From: a phage
Direction: 5' to 3' (one strand)
Length of the DNA stretch: 64,000 bases
Sequence record: PZ386957.1
A model generated the notes under the pieces. That model saw only the letters and a list, made by a program, of their open reading frames with translations. It did no database searches and was not told the origin of the DNA. This document shows, piece by piece, positions 2,827 through 10,130 of the stretch (within the stretch, counting starts at the first letter, position 1; the number at the start of each line of letters is the position of its first letter). The translations under genes and the position numbers were made by a program.

Positions 2827-4239
2827 TTAGAAAGTCATGTTATTTGCTAGCTCGTCGAGTTTTTCGCGTTTCTCGGCTTGCTGTGCGCTTTGTGGTTTAA
2901 TTTGTGCGTTCTCCTGGTCGGCGATCTGGTTTGGAACTTCATACCAACGCTGATTTCCTTTTTTCACACCAACGTTAAAGCGAGAATAATAGTTCTTATC
3001 GCCGTAACGAGATTTGATCTGCTTGAGCAGTTGAACGCCCATTTTTGCAAGGTCTTCGGTTTCAATCACACCCAACATAAAATCGGCTGTAGCCGGAAGA
3101 CCTGCGGATTCAGCGGTATCACTCATGTTAAGGTCCGATGCATCCCATCCCGCGCGAGTAGTCTGTGCCGCAGTCCAGCCAACAACATCCCACTTAACAA
3201 AAAATCCTCGCAGTTCTTCCGCAATAGCCTTAACTAGTGTGTAACTGTTTTCAGAGTATACACGCAAACGAGACGATGCGCAAATCCCCAGATAGTCAAC
3301 AATTACAACATCAGGTTTAAACTGTTTCTTGAGTCGCAATTCATTCATTAACGCCTCAAAGTGGTTGGAGTTCGCGCCACCAGTCGGATATTGCTTGATC
3401 ATCAGCTTGCCGATTGGACGTTCTCCGGCTTTCTTATTCTTAACACGTTTCATACGTGCCGAATATTCAGCAAAAGAAACATTACCATTATCCAATTCAT
3501 CTAAGGTAATGTCAAGCAAGTTTGCGTCAATACGTTTTGCTACTACGTGCTCTGCCATCTCCATTGAGATATACAGGACATTATAACCACATTCCATATA
3601 ATCGGCAGCGAGAGAACATAAGCCCAATGATTTACCAACGTTTACACCAGCAAGCAACACATTCAAGGTCTTTTTCTCTGCCCCACCTTTCGTTATTTTA
3701 TTCAGACTAGGCAGCTTAAACGGGATCTTATTCGCTTTAGTCTGATATAACAAGAATCGTTTTTCAAAGTCATTAAACCAGTCATGACCTACATCAGAAT
3801 CAAACGTAATGGATAGTGCCTCCTGCATGATCTCAGGAATAGCGCCCTCGCCTGGCAATTTCTTATTCTGTTTTTCTTTTGGTAGCTGTGCGTTCGCCTG
3901 AATCTCTAGCGCCCGTGACATTGCATTATACATAGCACGGTCACGAATAAATTTTTCTGTTTCCTTCATTAACCAATCAAGGTCTTCCGGTGTATTCTCC
4001 AAAGAATCAAGAAGAGTTTTAGCCCCTTCATATGTTGTCTGATTGCCTCTCTCCTTGTCTAAAGCAATCTGTAATGCTGTAGGGGTAGGAATATTGGAAT
4101 ATTCGTCTACATGCTTTTTAATCAGCTTATAAATCAGTTTTTCTTCGTCTTCGGTGAAGTAGTCCGCTTTAAGATGAGGCCATACATTCGTGAAGAATGT
4201 GCCATTATAAATCAACTGTGAAAAGATAGTTTTAATCAT
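2827..4239 (-). CDS. 41: replicative DNA helicase (DnaB-like, T4 gp41-like)
   Basis: 470 aa; Walker A GVNVGKS and RecA-like core; size and position match T4 gp41. Confidence 0.9.
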   Translation of the reverse strand: MIKTIFSQLIYNGTFFTNVWPHLKADYFTEDEEKLIYKLIKKHVDEYSNIPTPTALQIALDKERGNQTTYEGAKTLLDSLENTPEDLDWLMKETEKFIRDRAMYNAMSRALEIQANAQLPKEKQNKKLPGEGAIPEIMQEALSITFDSDVGHDWFNDFEKRFLLYQTKANKIPFKLPSLNKITKGGAEKKTLNVLLAGVNVGKSLGLCSLAADYMECGYNVLYISMEMAEHVVAKRIDANLLDITLDELDNGNVSFAEYSARMKRVKNKKAGERPIGKLMIKQYPTGGANSNHFEALMNELRLKKQFKPDVVIVDYLGICASSRLRVYSENSYTLVKAIAEELRGFFVKWDVVGWTAAQTTRAGWDASDLNMSDTAESAGLPATADFMLGVIETEDLAKMGVQLLKQIKSRYGDKNYYSRFNVGVKKGNQRWYEVPNQIADQENAQIKPQSAQQAEKREKLDELANNMTF

Positions 4240-4608: not shown

Positions 4609-5679
4609 TTATGCTAACATATCTTCGATTTCTTTGTCAACTGCTTCGTCGCTGATCACTTGCCCCAGCTTATAATGGTCATTGATTGCTTCGTTAAACT
4701 TATCGTTTGTCAGAAGTGGTTTCCAGAACTCAATGCTGTTGGTTTCTTTAGCACGGAACTTTCGTTCTTCGGTTTCCATCTCTCCGGTCTCAGTATTCAG
4801 GATGGAACGAGAATACCAGCCGTTTGACGGTTTCACTACCCAACCTAACTCTACAGCCAATTCTAGCAAACCGGAATAAGGATCGATACCACCGCTAAAG
4901 GTTACGCTAATCGGGAACTTAGATTTTTCTTTAACGGTTCGTGATTTTTCCGCATTCAGGATAAAATCATAACCAGTAATTTCGGTTCCTTCTTTCTGTT
5001 GACGACGACCGATAATAAAGCATTCGTTGGCGCTGTACATTGCGCCCGTACCACCGGACATAACGGTCTTGCTAAACATTTCTTGCGTTTCGTATGTGTG
5101 GTTAATCGCAATGCACGGAATGTCATTCATAGTCAGATATGGTGTAATCATACGGAACAAGCCTTTAAGTGCTTTAGCTCGCGTCATATCCTGCGCCGAT
5201 TTCTCATTAATCGCGTCTTCAACTTCTTTTTTGCTTGCTAAGTTACCGATTGAGTCAATAAAGATGATCACTTTATCTTCACGGGTAATTTGCTCAAGCT
5301 GGTTCATGATCTCAAATTTAAGTTCTTCGATGTTCTTGATTGGAACGTGTACCACGCGATCAGGATCTACACCCATAGATGACAGATATGCGGAAGTAAT
5401 ACCAAACTCAGAATCAAAGAACAAACAAGCCGCATCAGGATTCTGTTTCATGTATGCACTAACACAAGTTAATCCCATGTTTGATTTAAAGTGCTTAGAT
5501 GGACCAGCAAAGAAAATCAGACCAGATTGAAAGCCTTTTTTAAGATCACCAGAAAACGCAATATTCAGCATCGGGATCTTAGTGCGAGTATTTGTTTTTT
5601 CGTTAAAGAAGCTGGATTTAGACAGTACCGCAGTAGTTTTCAGGGTAGAGTTCTTTTTCAGTTTTTCCAGTACAGACAT
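4609..5679 (-). CDS. uvsX: UvsX recombinase (RecA/Rad51 family)
   Basis: 356 aa; near-colinear with recalled T4 UvsX (FFNEK..RTKIPM.NIA.SG, GPSK.FKSN, IAINHTYETQEMFSKTVM.GGTG). Confidence 0.92.
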   Translation of the reverse strand: MSVLEKLKKNSTLKTTAVLSKSSFFNEKTNTRTKIPMLNIAFSGDLKKGFQSGLIFFAGPSKHFKSNMGLTCVSAYMKQNPDAACLFFDSEFGITSAYLSSMGVDPDRVVHVPIKNIEELKFEIMNQLEQITREDKVIIFIDSIGNLASKKEVEDAINEKSAQDMTRAKALKGLFRMITPYLTMNDIPCIAINHTYETQEMFSKTVMSGGTGAMYSANECFIIGRRQQKEGTEITGYDFILNAEKSRTVKEKSKFPISVTFSGGIDPYSGLLELAVELGWVVKPSNGWYSRSILNTETGEMETEERKFRAKETNSIEFWKPLLTNDKFNEAINDHYKLGQVISDEAVDKEIEDMLA

Positions 5680-5690
5680 TATTAATACCT

Positions 5691-5918
5691 CTATTCAGTT
5701 AATCCGTAATACTTTAATTGCTTCATTGTTATTCGATCTTTGTAGTGCTCTTGAATTAACTTTTTCATCGCATCAACATCGATCGTCACAAATACTTCGT
5801 TGCTGTGATTTCCGTGAACTTTCTTGAAGTGCTCTATCGCGTCCTCTCGTTCACGTCTAATCTTTTCGATATCTCTCATAGTATATTTCTCACGCTGGCG
5901 GGTATCGTCACCCAACAC
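5691..5918 (-). CDS. hypothetical small protein
   Basis: 75 aa ORF; the only gene between polymerase and uvsX, where T4 carries imm, 42 and beta-gt. Confidence 0.45.
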   Translation of the reverse strand: MLGDDTRQREKYTMRDIEKIRREREDAIEHFKKVHGNHSNEVFVTIDVDAMKKLIQEHYKDRITMKQLKYYGLTE

Positions 5919-5940
5919 CCGCCATTATACACACTTTATC

Positions 5941-7380
5941 TTAAATGTCAAACAGGTCCGTAAGCGATGCCACTTTTTCATATTGCAGCTTTGCAGCCGT
6001 GGTAATGTTCTCCAGTGGTTTGACGAAAGTCTTATTGAACAACAAAGACCAGTCCAACCACTTTAACACCTCTGATTCAATTTCTGGAGGAATACGAGTA
6101 CCAGACAACCAACCAAAACAGATTTCTCCAAACGGATTTCGATCTTTGAGCGGTACGATCATAACTTTCTCGCCCTCACGAATCGGATCTAGTCCAAATT
6201 TTCGAGCATTACGATTATAACACAATACGCTCTTAACCGCATACGGACAGCCCTTAATCGGATACCCGTTTGAATCGCTGTATTTCTGTAGGTTGTTTGC
6301 AGATGATACCGCAGCAACCTCAAGATAGTCAAGTTTTCTAAATTCTTGCTCAAAAATACCGTAGTATTCCTGCAATGACTCTTCACCTTCCTGCAACATA
6401 CGACGAATACATTCTTTCAGTGATTTCTGACATGCTTTAGGTGTAGAACTACGTTGCGTTTCTAAGCCCATGATTTTTAGCTTAGGTTCAGCAAAGCGAG
6501 TTCCTTCCATATCCCAAACATTAAGAGCATAACGCTTTTTACCAGTCCAGAATCCACCGATACCCGCAGATTTCAACGGAGGACCAGCAATTGCCTCACG
6601 GTCCATAAACATCAAGTGCTCATAGTTGTTCATGTACTCGCATAACTCGCGATATCCCTTGTCGATAATAGGTTCCATTCGATGTTTACCGAAATTATCA
6701 AGGAAGTCAACAAGTTTTTCGGTATCGTCGAAACGGTCTTCCCCACCAACCTTATCAACAACATTGTTAACCAGCACATAAACGGAGTCAGTATCACAAT
6801 AACGAACATATGCAAAATCGGTTGTTCCGCAAAGTTCGTTTAAGTATTCGTTAATCTTACGCTCAATCCACTGAATTGCAAGCTGACCGAACAAAGTGAT
6901 CGCACTAGCATTACGCAGATCATACAAACGAAATTTCGGATTTCCTACATATTTTCAATGAGTCGCGCAACCAACTCACCCGCCGTTAGGCTGCTGCATA
7001 TCGCTATGCAGATAAGACTATATCACCTATCAACCGAAGTCAATAGCCCACCATTTCGAGCGCCATTAGCTTGCACCCTACACCGTTACACTCATCACGG
7101 TTAGTCGTTAGGCATTTACAGCATTATAGCTGATTTAGCACGGGATTGTCAACCAGTCCGTATACGTTGATATTCCCCGTTTAGATGGGTTTAAGGTGCG
7201 CTAGGATGTTTACGCACCATAAAGGCTGTTAATCAATACCTTTCGTGAAAGTTGGTTTGTGTTACATAGAATAGACTCGTCTTGACATATCGCTAGATGC
7301 CGTTCTAATTCCTCGATTGGTAACGAATCAAGATAGGCCAATTCTTCATCGGTGAAGTCTTTACGATGATCTATATTCAT
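5941..7380 (-). CDS. 43: DNA polymerase C-terminal subunit gp43B, intron-containing: exon 1 = 7212..7380, group I intron = 6948..7211, exon 2 = 5941..6947
   Basis: ATG at 7380 (AAGGAG RBS) overlaps the HEG stop as ATGA; exon 1 encodes MNIDHRKDFTDEEL...NTNQLSRKVLINSLYGA (motif B KxxxNSxYG); joining U7212 to U6947 reads ...LYGALGNPKFRLYDLRN, colinear with T4 ...LYGALGNIHFRYYDLRN; exon 2 carries motif C YCDTDSVYV; spliced product 391 aa. Confidence 0.82.
6948..7211 (-). ncRNA. group I self-splicing intron, ORF-less, within gene 43B
   Basis: 5' exon end GGUGCGU pairs with intron GCGCACC (P1, U-G wobble at splice site); adjacent intron CCUA pairs with 3' exon UAGG (P10); intron ends in G; internal P/Q/R/S-like elements (CGGGGAAUAUCAACG, AAUCCCGUGC, AACGACUAA, GAUAUAGUCU); two in-frame stops inside. 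Confidence 0.75.
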
Positions 7381-8198
7381 GATATATCTTTCTCCTTAAG
7401 CCGACAATTGTTAAAATGCCAGCGTTTTAAAGACTGTGCAACTCCAGATTTACCGCAATGTGGACATACAGCAATAATTTTCTTGCTTTCTTCCCAGCGT
7501 TTCTTTGCGGCTTCTTTCATCTTTTCTTTAGAGTCGTCAGACATTTTCTTACCTTTCATGCCCTTAACGCAATCTGGATTTTCTGCTATTCTAGCAAGCA
7601 TTCTTTGTCTTTGCAACTCTTTTTTCTCGTCGCTCCACCCTGCGGATATTTTATCACGTTCTTCCTGTGATAGCGTCTTACCAACTTGTTTGTGTGGATT
7701 TTTAGAATAATATTCTTTTAATCCTTTAGCGATCTTTGCCTTTGTATCATCAGAGTGAGATTTGTCAATATCTTTGTTGCTATTATACTTCTCGATGTTT
7801 CTTTTTGAAACGGCATCATAAAATTCTTTGTTTGACTTTCTCGTCTTTTTGATACCGTTAGAAACTTTGACAGCAATTACCGGATTTTTCATCGGGTTAT
7901 TGTCGCCGGAAGTGTCGATGTGATAGAAGCCACCGACACCGCCTAACGTGATGTTATATGTATCAGACCGCTTTAGAAAGTCTTCGTTTACGATCTCGGC
8001 CTCTTTGTCATAAGCGTCTTTCTCGTTATCATATTCAAACAGAATATCTTTATGGAAGTTTTCGACCCCATACTTCGCGATAGCTCGTTTGATATGAATA
8101 CCGCTACCCATATATGAATCATCTGGGTCGTCGGTCTTGTGTACACCAACATAGATCATATTGTTTATCTTATTTGTGATCCGATACACATAATACAT
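7377..8198 (-). CDS. freestanding GIY-YIG homing endonuclease (Seg-like) inserted between 43A and 43B
   Basis: 273 aa; N-terminal GIY-YIG module YVYRITNKINNMIYVGVH, repeated NUMOD3-like S..E.R.KIS segments, C-terminal CPHCGKSG zinc finger; start overlaps 43A stop (TAATG), stop overlaps 43B start (ATGA). Confidence 0.85.
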   Translation of the reverse strand: MYYVYRITNKINNMIYVGVHKTDDPDDSYMGSGIHIKRAIAKYGVENFHKDILFEYDNEKDAYDKEAEIVNEDFLKRSDTYNITLGGVGGFYHIDTSGDNNPMKNPVIAVKVSNGIKKTRKSNKEFYDAVSKRNIEKYNSNKDIDKSHSDDTKAKIAKGLKEYYSKNPHKQVGKTLSQEERDKISAGWSDEKKELQRQRMLARIAENPDCVKGMKGKKMSDDSKEKMKEAAKKRWEESKKIIAVCPHCGKSGVAQSLKRWHFNNCRLKEKDIS

Positions 8199-9685
8199 TA
8201 TTCACCTCGTCGTTTCTTTAACATCTCCTTAATCTTTTCAGCATTACGGTCACACGCCAACATCATGTTTTTGTACTGTTTACGCTGGTCGAACACCTTT
8301 TTGATTTCAATCGGTACTACACCCTGAATATCTTTTCGATACATCCAACCGTTAGGAGAACATGAGTATTCATCGCTAGGCCGTTCCGCTGTTTTATTAA
8401 TATAGTCGATCATTGGCGCGGTGTCAAATGATCCAGCTATAGTTTCCGGCGAAATGTTAACCTGTCGGATGATAGACGGATACAGACTTGTTAAGTCAAA
8501 GCTCATCATCCAACGGTAAGCATTAGGTACTGGTTCTTTTACAAAAGCACCTGGATACGTCTGCTTAGGCTGTATCTTATTTTCCGGTACTACTTTACCC
8601 TCAGCTTTCAGAGATCCGAAGATAATAGCATCCCATACCTTCATCGGGTTATACACATGGTTAAATTTAATCTTTGCATAGTAGCATAGACTATACACAA
8701 GATCGATAAATCCGCGCTTTTTATCAATCGCCAATACACGATCAACGTCGCCGATGTTATAATCGATGTAAAGTTGATGGTTGTCATCACGCAATTTCTT
8801 TAACGGACCATCATAATCAACCTTACCGATTCCTGTCTCATATTCAGCAACATAATCTAATGCATATGTTGGTTGAGTCGTAAAGCTGAATTTCTTGTAC
8901 AGGTCAATGTAATCAAGGCTTTCGATCCCCATGATCGTAAATGCTTCACGCTCGTTGCCAAAATCATCCTGTGAGATTCGGGATTTAATCTTACCGCACG
9001 GGCTTAATCGGTTTGCCGTTCGACTTCCAAACTTATTACTGATACGCTTAATGATATACGGGATATCGAATGTTTCTGTGTTCCAGCCAGTGAAACCAAC
9101 TGGTCGATTTTCCTCAAAGAATCGGATGTATTCTAACAGCAATTCATCTTCCGTATCGTAGACGTTATAAACAACACGCTCTACTATATCAGGTCGAAGA
9201 ATAGACTTTCTTGCTTCCCATATTTCACCGTTTTTGCCTTTCAAATCAAAGACAAAGAAACGATCATGTACGGAATCATAATGCGTAATTGCATCAATAG
9301 GATATTTTGCTTCTTCTGGCTTCGGGAATTCCGGCGCAGTAACCTCAATATCAACCCATGCTACACGGATTTTATTTCGGTCATATCGAATCTCACCCTT
9401 GTATGTGTCGGATAGATAGGAGATGATAAAATCATCCATTCCTAACGCCTCTTGCCCCATCTCTCCCATCTTTTTACGCCATTTGTTGGCCTCGTTCATA
9501 GATGGGAATTTTTTAGCAATGCAAGGCTTGCCATAGATATCTTTATAATTAGTAACCATACCAGGCGCGGCATGATGAAATAAAGTTGGCGTATACTCAA
9601 CGTAACGCTCTTGTTCTTGTCCGGTATCATCAATATAACGCTCGTAGATCTTATCACCTACTCTCTCACATGACAGAAAATACAT
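8198..9685 (-). CDS. 43: DNA polymerase N-terminal subunit gp43A (N-terminal and 3'-5' exonuclease domains, motif A)
   Basis: Start refined to ATG 9685 (MYFLSCERVGDKIYERYIDD vs T4 MKEFYISIETVGNNIVERYIDE); contains FDIPY, YNI.DV, DLTSLYPSIIRQVNISPET; ends with TAA where T4 gp43 continues. Confidence 0.9.
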   Translation of the reverse strand: MYFLSCERVGDKIYERYIDDTGQEQERYVEYTPTLFHHAAPGMVTNYKDIYGKPCIAKKFPSMNEANKWRKKMGEMGQEALGMDDFIISYLSDTYKGEIRYDRNKIRVAWVDIEVTAPEFPKPEEAKYPIDAITHYDSVHDRFFVFDLKGKNGEIWEARKSILRPDIVERVVYNVYDTEDELLLEYIRFFEENRPVGFTGWNTETFDIPYIIKRISNKFGSRTANRLSPCGKIKSRISQDDFGNEREAFTIMGIESLDYIDLYKKFSFTTQPTYALDYVAEYETGIGKVDYDGPLKKLRDDNHQLYIDYNIGDVDRVLAIDKKRGFIDLVYSLCYYAKIKFNHVYNPMKVWDAIIFGSLKAEGKVVPENKIQPKQTYPGAFVKEPVPNAYRWMMSFDLTSLYPSIIRQVNISPETIAGSFDTAPMIDYINKTAERPSDEYSCSPNGWMYRKDIQGVVPIEIKKVFDQRKQYKNMMLACDRNAEKIKEMLKKRRGE

Positions 9686-9717
9686 AATATAAACTCCTTC
9701 ACTTACGAAAGACACTC

Positions 9718-9746
9718 ATTATAGGGGAATCGACTTAGTTTGTCAA
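9718..9746 (-). promoter_or_regulatory. sigma70-type early promoter upstream of gene 43A
   Basis: Minus strand reads TTGACA-17 nt-TATAAT; flanked by inverted repeat ATAGGGG/CCCCTAT. Confidence 0.6.
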
Positions 9747-9767
9747 TACCCCTATCCCATCAGTATC

Positions 9768-10130
9768 TTAGCGTCCGATCTGATACTTTTCGATCAGTGT
9801 CCATTCTTCTTTCTGTTTGAAAGACAGAACACGGAAGTTATTCACTTCGGTAGTTTCAAAATCACTATCAATCAGGGTACACAGATTCCACTGCGCAAGA
9901 AGTTTTGCAATGTTATTACGGCGTAACTCATCTTCCCACGTCATTTTAACACTACGACCATCTAATTTCAATAACTCCTTGAAGTGAACGATATAATAGC
10001 GCCCTTTCTTCTGGAGAATATGACAAGATTGATACAGTGTCTTGTCTCGATTATTGGCAATGCCGCAGCGGGTTAAAGTCTCCTTAATTTTAAGGAAGTT
10101 TTCAGGATTAATCAAATTAATTTCAATCAT
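9768..10130 (-). CDS. regA: RegA translational repressor
   Basis: 120 aa; MIEI.L..PE.FLK.KETLTR.GIANN.DK.LYQSCHILQKKG.YYIVHFKE matches recalled T4 RegA almost residue by residue. Confidence 0.92.
   Translation of the reverse strand: MIEINLINPENFLKIKETLTRCGIANNRDKTLYQSCHILQKKGRYYIVHFKELLKLDGRSVKMTWEDELRRNNIAKLLAQWNLCTLIDSDFETTEVNNFRVLSFKQKEEWTLIEKYQIGR

Follow-up and report, generated by a model that had tools for sequence, protein, structure and literature searches.

In the phage sequence PZ386957.1, a stretch of 64,000 nucleotides (nt) that is here called the window, the gene for DNA polymerase (gene 43) is divided into two cistrons, 43A and 43B, by a freestanding homing endonuclease gene (HEG) of the GIY-YIG family, and 43B is itself interrupted by a group I intron that contains no open reading frame (ORF). 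It is very probable that this Krischvirus gene 43 carries a composite mobile cassette, whose intron would splice from the polymerase message and whose endonuclease would bring about the collaborative homing of both elements. The arrangement of 43A, HEG and intron-bearing 43B has already been published for Aeromonas phage 25, and the present locus is thus a new example of a known mobile cassette. The host lineage is new, as no Krischvirus with such a cassette was found in the phage collection searched. New too are the apparent kinship of the intron core with the T-even nrdD (sunY) introns and a nearly identical 1.7-kb block shared with metagenome genomes.

The best matches to positions 5900-9800 are RB49-type Krischvirus phages, at about 94.5% identity (megablast, 70 phage records). 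Each RB49-type record aligns to 67% of this query, in two pieces. The missing third is contained in no INPHARED (August 2025) record, and none of the 70 matches covers 80% or more of the query. Every Krischvirus-type record among the matches listed (30 of 70) has a gene 43 allele that lacks both the HEG and the intron. The gene 43 locus of the window lies entirely on the minus strand, in the following order:

8198..9685, minus strand: cistron 43A, the N-terminal part of PolB, 495 amino acids (aa) (ORF; Pfam DNA_pol_B_exo1 and DNA_pol_B)
7377..8198, minus strand: freestanding GIY-YIG HEG, 273 aa, similar to seg43(25), the HEG of phage 25 (Pfam GIY-YIG, PHROG 314)
7212..7380, minus strand: 43B exon 1, 169 nt, or 56 codons plus 1 nt, ending ...INSLYGA plus U (ORF, comparison with RB49)
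6948..7211, minus strand: ORF-less group I intron, 264 nt, IA2-like, apparently of the nrdD/sunY lineage (RB49 alignment, RF00028, nhmmer, helices, covariation)
5941..6947, minus strand: 43B exon 2, beginning UAGGAAAU..., containing the remainder of motif B, then motif C and the C-terminus (comparison with RB49)

43A is colinear with residues 1 to about 489 of RB49 gp43, and its stop codon (8200..8198) overlaps the start of the HEG as TAATG. The HEG stop overlaps in turn the ATG of 43B (as ATGA), upstream of which lies an AAGGAG Shine-Dalgarno sequence. The split between 43A and 43B falls in the fingers region, where diverged sequence stands at the junction in place of about 43 codons of RB49.

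The intron in polymerase motif B

On the minus strand, the 43B frame runs into a TAA directly after ...INSLYGA, leaving motif B interrupted, as the original prediction, made from the window's letters, had noted. The insert has stop codons in all minus-strand frames and no minus-strand ORF of 30 aa or more; the earlier description of an ORF-less element separated from the HEG by the 169 nt of exon 1 was therefore accurate. In a gapped DNA alignment with the intron-less gene 43 of RB49, window positions 7288..7212 correspond to RB49 nt 1596-1672 and positions 6947..5941 to RB49 nt 1673-2679. The insert is thus exactly 7211..6948, 264 nt in length, in agreement with the boundaries first proposed, and it sits within a Leu codon of motif B (...LYGA|LGN...). 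The intron-less RB49 DNA reads TATGGTGCGT|TGGGGAATCC at this site, and the ligated exon junction in the window phage is predicted to be GGUGCGU|UAGGAAAU. Joining 7212 to 6947 encodes ...LYGALGNPKFRLYDLRN, colinear with ...LYGALGNPKFRFYDLRN of RB49 gp43, so that excision at the predicted sites would rebuild motif B. In every comparison, the frame is restored only by precise removal of the insert.

The exon sequence beside the intron is under purifying selection. The last 77 nt of exon 1 differ from RB49 at 14 positions, all of them silent, and the first 60 nt of exon 2 at nine, with one amino acid changed; exon 2 as a whole is 96.8% identical to RB49 nt 1673-2679.

The RNA of the insert can be folded into the helices of a group I intron, as follows:

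7195..7218, minus strand: P1, formed by 5' exon GGUGCGU (7218..7212) and internal guide GCGCACC (7201..7195), seven canonical pairs
6944..6947, minus strand: 3' exon strand of P10, UAGG, pairing with intron 7205..7202 (pairing check)
7016..7189, minus strand: catalytic core P3-P8, all pairs canonical
7189..7184/7052..7047, minus strand: P3, canonical pairs, pseudoknot with P7
7179..7175/7145..7141, minus strand: P4, canonical pairs
7170..7166/7153..7149, minus strand: P5, canonical pairs
7139..7112, minus strand: P6 and P6a, canonical pairs
7106..7102/7020..7016, minus strand: P7, canonical pairs, invariant among eight introns
7101..7082, minus strand: P7.1, canonical pairs
7078..7058, minus strand: P7.2, canonical pairs
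7046..7027, minus strand: P8 with a UUCG loop, canonical pairs
6948..7014, minus strand: 3' domain with terminal G at 6948 (helix check)
7014..7012/6952..6950, minus strand: P9.0, canonical pairs
7011..6994, minus strand: P9 with a GCGA loop, canonical pairs, covarying among homologues
6991..6982, minus strand: P9.1, canonical pairs
6980..6957, minus strand: P9.2, canonical pairs, covarying among homologues

The last pair of P1, at the 5' splice site, is a U.G, and the loop of P1 contains the P10 strand CCUA (7205..7202). The last intron base, 6948, is a G (omega G), which is adjoined by the 3-bp P9.0. The P1 and P10 pairings and the terminal G had all been read from the letters beforehand, and each was recovered in the helix check. 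P2 is absent, with only UUAAA between P1 and P3, and the aligned nrdD-type introns also lack it. A minimum free energy fold of the single sequence recovers P1, P3-P6, P7.1, P7.2, P8 and P9. Hairpins P7.1 and P7.2, lying between P7 and the 3' strand of P3, are typical of subgroup IA. The IA2 subgroup was reportedly set out by Michel and Westhof in 1990 and is said to be of the T4 td/nrdB/sunY type; the window intron bears its marks in the P7.1 and P7.2 hairpins and in its homology to nrdD introns. The homologous intron of phage 25 is annotated as 'group IA2' in NC_008208.

Seven other phages, namely vB_EcoM_G2285 and Aeromonas phages 25, phiAS4, Aes508, Aes120, Aes512 and Aes002, carry introns at precisely the nucleotide position of the window intron (between GCN U and UN GGN AAY), and all seven match the Rfam group I intron model RF00028, at 64-84 bits. 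In an alignment of eight introns, 96.4% of cells are paired under the proposed structure, including the P3/P7 pseudoknot, compared with 33-44% in slid controls; compensatory changes, in which both sides of a pair differ, are found at 30 of 69 pairs, compared with 2-5 in the slid controls. Within the phiAS4 group, the exon and P1 change together at two pairs (GCG U/GCGC to GCU U/GAGC), and P10 analogues can be recognised by eye in phage 25 (ACCCA/UGGGU), phiAS4 (ACUU/AGGU) and G2285 (ACUC/GGGU). Two variants of the window intron, which differ from it at 5 and 19 positions, keep the helices (C46-G59 becomes U-A, P6a is re-registered, and U.G and Watson-Crick pairs are exchanged), and the variant on contig L090 retains the P9.2 pairing. 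The group I core that the original prediction claimed is thus borne out by canonical helices, by homologues at the same site and by compensatory covariation.

Profile searches lead to the same place. With nhmmer profiles made from other phage introns, the window sequence being left out, a single match was obtained in the 64 kb, at 7210..6955 (E 1e-38 with a profile of all six introns). RF00028 itself matches 7245..6994(-) over the full model (1-253) with 52.0 bits (E 3.2e-12) in a scan of 801 nt, the gathering score being 50 bits. Some results count against this identification. Two Rfam scans of the whole window, one at the gathering score and one at a permissive E-value, reported nothing, so that the match is marginal and depends on filters. 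RF00028 also missed the L090 intron variant (3170-3433) in a 3-kb scan and the nrdD intron of phage HY03 (L006 1462-1700) in a 9.5-kb scan. These two failures indicate that the model and its filters are weak on the nrdD-type lineage, and sunY-type introns are in consequence probably under-annotated in phage genomes. As the match appears only when a short stretch is scanned, its absence from large scans is no evidence against the intron. With a model so weak on this lineage, and with stronger independent evidence at hand, the case for group I identity is not rested on Rfam; comparative sequence analysis confirms that the 264-nt insert is a group I intron with the boundaries given above.

Gene calls on metagenome contigs over the locus give products of 495, 273, 56 and 328 aa. 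Annotation pipelines fragment the essential gene 43 into four or five unrelated ORFs in this way, and recognition of the intron yields the correct polymerase sequence for phylogeny and for the curation of phage-therapy genomes.

Ancestry of the intron

The core of the window intron appears to belong to the lineage of the T-even nrdD (sunY) introns rather than to that of the phage 25 intron. In local blastn comparisons it scores 118 bits against the HY03 nrdD intron (211 nt), 112 against the nrdD intron of Vibrio phage 1.084.O and 101 against an intron of Aeromonas phage TS9, but no more than 44 against other gene-43 introns. The P7.1/P7.2 segment is nearly identical to that of the nrdD-type introns of HY03, Vibrio phage 1.084.O and TS9. 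A profile of nrdD-type introns only gives E 5.8e-43, compared with 4.2e-12 for gene-43-type introns only, and a blastn search of 2.3 Gb gives 75% identity over 166 nt to T-even nrdD introns (E ~1e-22). With 65.4 bits on RF00028, the intron of the last of the three phages, vB_AdhM_TS9 (L008 1444-1684), is of group I; it resembles the window core closely, carries no annotation and lies between two CDSs annotated as 'hypothetical protein'.

As its core resembles nrdD introns more than it does the remaining gene-43 introns, the intron may not be a descendant of that of phage 25. The nearest relatives of the HEG are those of G2285 and locus L009, and those of the intron are nrdD introns; the histories of the two elements are therefore discordant. 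This mismatch bears on the question of how composite mobile introns are assembled.

The intron could have arrived on its own if an nrdD-type intron RNA had inserted itself into gene 43 mRNA by reverse splicing, with reverse transcription and recombination as the later steps; its adjacency to the HEG would then be secondary. The nrdD-type core, seen in both the blastn and the profile scores, fits such a route, as does the restriction of site specificity to P1 and P10, and PMC2993671 notes an infrequent integration of introns through reverse splicing. However, reverse splicing explains the origin at most, as the intron and the HEG now spread together in a block. The intron could instead have originated when a gene-43 intron already in place exchanged its core with an nrdD intron by recombination, and no second intron copy that could have served as donor was found in the 64-kb window. 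As an account of the locus, reverse splicing is on balance unlikely.

Probable mobility of the cassette

The HEG is full length and apparently intact. It matches Pfam GIY-YIG with 26.1 bits (cut-off 22.6) and the PHROG 314 'homing endonuclease' family with E 1e-46. Over 98% of its length it is 37-47% identical to the HEGs that G2285 and Aeromonas phages 25, phiAS4, Aes508, Aes120, Aes512 and Aes002 have at this position; its closest relative in the phage collection is that of G2285 (46.7%), and the HEG of phage 25 is 36.6% identical over residues 1-268 (tblastn, E 2e-44). Conserved features are the GIY/YIG residues, a Glu, an Asn and the C-terminal CPHC...RWHF..C motif. No T4-type late promoter (TATAAATA) was found upstream of the HEG within 30 kb. 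A hairpin sequestering the ribosome-binding site, as in I-TevI, segB and mobE, was not detected, the local fold being no better than that of shuffled sequences (z = +0.64).

Further copies of the cassette were found in ENA and Logan assemblies through the exact 56-aa product of exon 1, which occurs on at least 29 contigs; an exact IMG/VR search with a 39-nt intron segment gave no match. Five independent metagenome contigs, some of them genomes of about 171 kb, have the intron in identical form. Comparison with one 171.6-kb contig, L084, defines a block that is laterally shared:

6836..8512, minus strand: from ~310 nt before the end of 43A, through HEG, exon 1 and intron, to ~110 nt into exon 2 (comparison with L084)

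Over this block the two genomes differ at four positions in 1,677 nt, and the adjoining flanks are about 9-10% diverged. The block also largely coincides with the zones of raised divergence from RB49, namely 8477..8219, exon 1 and 6946..6894. Mismatches to RB49 rise from about 2-4 to 7-17 per 60 nt over 8485..8219; at the other end they are raised over 6946..6894 and fall to about one per 60 nt beyond the first 60 nt of exon 2. In the same region, RB49 and JSE, another Krischvirus, show only 0-3 differences per 60 nt. On contig L090, which also carries the cassette, the upstream tract ends elsewhere. A near-identical block within diverged genomes, bounded by tracts that resemble co-conversion, is the pattern expected as the footprint of endonuclease-initiated en-bloc conversion, a pattern that would not in itself prove which enzyme initiated it. 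On a separate contig (L085 2176-3004) the HEG is broken into ORFs of 152 and 132 aa beside an intron identical to that of the window; here the endonuclease has decayed and the intron has been retained.

The cassette may be pictured to work as follows. Insertion of the HEG would have split gene 43 into 43A and 43B at the fingers region. The intron RNA is predicted to fold into P1-P10 and, using the exon U.G pair and its terminal G, to splice itself out of the 43B message, so that normal gp43B is made and associates with gp43A, as both the sequence and the precedent of phages 25 and 44RR suggest. In a mixed infection, the endonuclease would most likely cut an intron-less gene 43 at or near the insertion site, and repair of the double-strand break would give the recipient a copy of the HEG, exon 1 and the intron together with adjacent exon sequence, in what is termed collaborative or trans homing. 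The target in the phage's own genome would be protected, interrupted as it is by the intron. That the HEG cleaves intron-less alleles near the insertion site we infer from phage 25 as a precedent (PMC2993671) and from the repeated finding of this site in disrupted form beside HEG homologues. The original prediction had regarded the arrangement as consistent with trans-acting homing, and in this it gains from the positional homology with seg43(25) and from the en-bloc sharing of HEG, exon 1 and intron; the cleavage specificity that such homing calls for is suggested by analogy.

Several points weigh against this account. With its identity to seg43(25) of only 37%, the HEG cannot simply be credited with the specificity of the phage 25 enzyme, and as Seg-type enzymes can cut hundreds of bases away, the cleavage site need not be the insertion site. 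The window intron may not descend from the phage 25 intron, which is the one that has been studied experimentally. En-bloc sharing, finally, could also result from ordinary recombination.

A second alternative is that the intron is functional but only a close passenger, sometimes co-converted, of an HEG that performs ordinary 'intron-less homing' by cutting gene 43 at another place, such as close to the 43A/43B junction. The discordant relationships of HEG and intron would suit a passenger, and at locus L009 the HEG is present and the intron absent. Against this, the HEG family is always accompanied by an interruption at the same motif-B codon (eight T4-like phages in three genera), more distant HEG-bearing polB loci have a mini-insert at the same few bases in place of an intron, and the phage 25 intron has been predicted to use the freestanding HEG for its mobility (PMC2993671). 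The recurrence of the HEG family with an interruption or a mini-insert at motif B indicates that this site is a target in need of disruption, and we consider the passenger role distinctly unlikely. That the insert is instead a decayed, non-splicing relic, with either a polymerase made up of three chains (43A, a motif-B peptide of 56 aa and a C-terminal piece initiated separately) or a defective genome, is highly improbable: the Rfam score lies only 2 bits above the cut-off and the ORF list includes a TTG-initiated ORF at 6927..5941, but this TTG has no Shine-Dalgarno sequence at a usable distance, the core helices are all intact and change among variants by pair-preserving substitutions, five independent metagenome contigs have the identical intron, and the exon flanks are under purifying selection with a frame that only precise removal restores.

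The mini-inserts just mentioned lie in other contigs, not in the window. They occur at HEG-split polB loci without an intron: L012 and L013 (both 3816-3826), L105, L106, L022 (476-492; the same as L098), L103, L104, L101 (1131-1147) and L009 (3918-3934). Among these, L009, L012, L013 and L022, from IMG/VR, had been examined as possible intron carriers, and have mini-inserts instead, with neither an intron nor an RF00028 match. Their GIY-YIG HEGs (L009, L012/L013, L022) are homologues of the window HEG where tested. The mini-inserts are 5, 10 or 11 nt long, shift the frame and start with a stop codon, as in GGT TAG GT|AAT, GGT TAA GTTAGGT|AAT, GGT TAA CTACTGGT|AAT and GCG TGA CCCGGGCT|AAC. In each, the stop is preceded by a Gly or Ala codon, a synonym of which appears immediately ahead of the resumed frame (...N.YFR...); the two would serve as take-off and landing codons. 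They are kept across samples, with flanking codons that vary synonymously and an open frame downstream. No description of motif-B mini-inserts was found in a literature search.

By their sequence and by analogy with T4 gene 60/mobA, the mini-inserts look like natural short translational bypasses that plug the same target. It is tempting, if speculative, to suggest that a seg43-type HEG and a target-plugging element may be interchangeable modules, with splicing introns and bypass gaps as alternative immunity devices and a retargeted nrdD/sunY intron as the plug in the window. We hold this possibility only tentatively. If true, it would generalise the T4 gene 60/mobA case and point to natural short stop-hops in viruses that infect bacteria. 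At a further HEG-split polB locus (L099, about 4930-5000, minus strand), an in-frame TAG replaces the Asn codon of LGN (LYGALG-TAG-KGSRFFD), beside a 218-aa ORF rich in NUMOD3; this TAG could be read through, be passed by a 9-nt hop (GGT...GGA) or be a recoded stop codon.

The intron of the window also contains a promoter-like sequence:

7123..7152, minus strand: putative sigma-70 promoter, a perfect TTGACA-18-TATAAT directed toward exon 2 (consensus match)

It spans the region from the 3' strand of P5 and J5/4 to the P6a loop. The 64-kb window has six perfect sigma-70 matches, all on the coding strand, where 0.09 would be expected, and two of the others coincide with the annotated early promoters of RB49 that flank gene 43. 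The L090 variant keeps the sequence (with 17-nt spacing) and L089 has lost it; neither the other gene-43 introns nor the nrdD-type introns contain it.

Relation to known systems

The closest experimental precedent is that of Aeromonas phage 25, for which Petrov, Ratnayaka and Karam, in the Journal of Molecular Biology in 2010, are said to have reported that the intron self-splices and that the HEG cleaves intron-free 43B sites. PMC2993671 describes this intron, 25.g43B, in that Aeromonas salmonicida phage's gene 43, as having no HEG of its own and as predicted to use the freestanding HEG for its mobility; PMC2988022 names the latter seg43(25) and reports that 43A and 43B co-purify and are active as a polymerase. 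In the window, as in phage 25, gene 43 is split at the same place, a homologous GIY-YIG HEG lies between the halves, and an ORF-less group I intron with the same P1, P10 and core architecture occupies the identical position (GCG U | UN GGN). There are also differences. Phage 25 is a Tulanevirus, whereas the window phage is a Krischvirus coliphage. An annotated gap of 44 nt separates 43A and the HEG in phage 25, whereas in the window the two overlap (TAATG) and there is no intercistronic untranslated sequence or hairpin. The phage 25 intron has 347 nt, and the 264-nt window intron has a core that appears to be of the nrdD/sunY lineage.

The same order of 43A, HEG, exon 1, intron and exon 2, with the intron at the same site, is found in the Mosigvirus Escherichia phage vB_EcoM_G2285 (MK327933). 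Its intron (232 nt; RF00028, 83.6 bits) is entered in the record as an Intron_gpI feature with the remark 'unable to determine intron/exon boundaries'. This phage belongs to another genus, and unlike the window intron, that of G2285 is of the phage-25/phiAS4 type in the P7.1/P7.2 region; the local similarity between the two is about 38 bits. With the T-even nrdD (sunY) intron, on the other hand, the window intron shares P3-P4, P6, P7, P7.1, P7.2 and P9, and the absence of P2. It differs in its host gene and its guide, and the nrdD intron carries the I-TevIII endonuclease ORF in its 3' domain.

Within the genus Krischvirus, gene 43 of JSE has an insertion that has been described as a putative intron with an HEG relic (PMC2993671). 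Genus, gene and putative group I nature are those of the window intron, but the JSE insertion is unrelated to it and has another site, nt 1193-1203 of RB49 gene 43, which is about 470 nt upstream of the one in motif B. It is 473 nt long (L005 8540-9012) and has no ORF. A 1.1-kb insertion at the JSE-type site on contig L090 (775-1897) has a 274-aa ORF with no Pfam match and a sub-threshold RF00028 score of 31 bits; as this contig has the window-type HEG and intron as well, its polymerase gene is in five pieces. By their GenBank annotation, Aeromonas phages Aes508 (L080 3917-5428) and Aes512 (L082) have, besides the HEG and intron, a split intein with a VSR-like endonuclease gene in a later part of 43B. 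The presence of the split intein on top of the other two elements makes gene 43 a hot spot for stacked mobile elements.

A functional parallel is offered by T4 gene 39/60 and mobA (PMC5009743; bioRxiv 10.1101/2022.08.31.505936), where a freestanding HEG likewise splits an essential gene of replication, and cleavage of the target is believed to be prevented by an untranslated insert a little further downstream. That insert is a 50-nt translational bypass skipped by the ribosome, whereas the window insert is predicted to be spliced from the RNA.

Precedents for collaborative homing, as referenced in PMC2988022 and PMC2993671, are the cyanophage psbA intron with its freestanding HEG (Zeng, Bonocora & Shub 2009), Aeh1 mobE and the T4 nrdB intron (Bonocora & Shub 2009), and T4 mobE and the nrdB intron (Wilson & Edgell 2009). 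The window cassette resembles these in combining an endonuclease-less intron with a separate HEG that would be pre-adapted to the insertion site, and in that the intron disrupts the target. It differs from them in that its HEG is located in the interrupted gene itself, 169 nt upstream of the intron, and in addition breaks up the protein. The locus thus adds a further natural case of a freestanding endonuclease travelling with an endonuclease-less intron, one for which the support is population-genomic and not only architectural.

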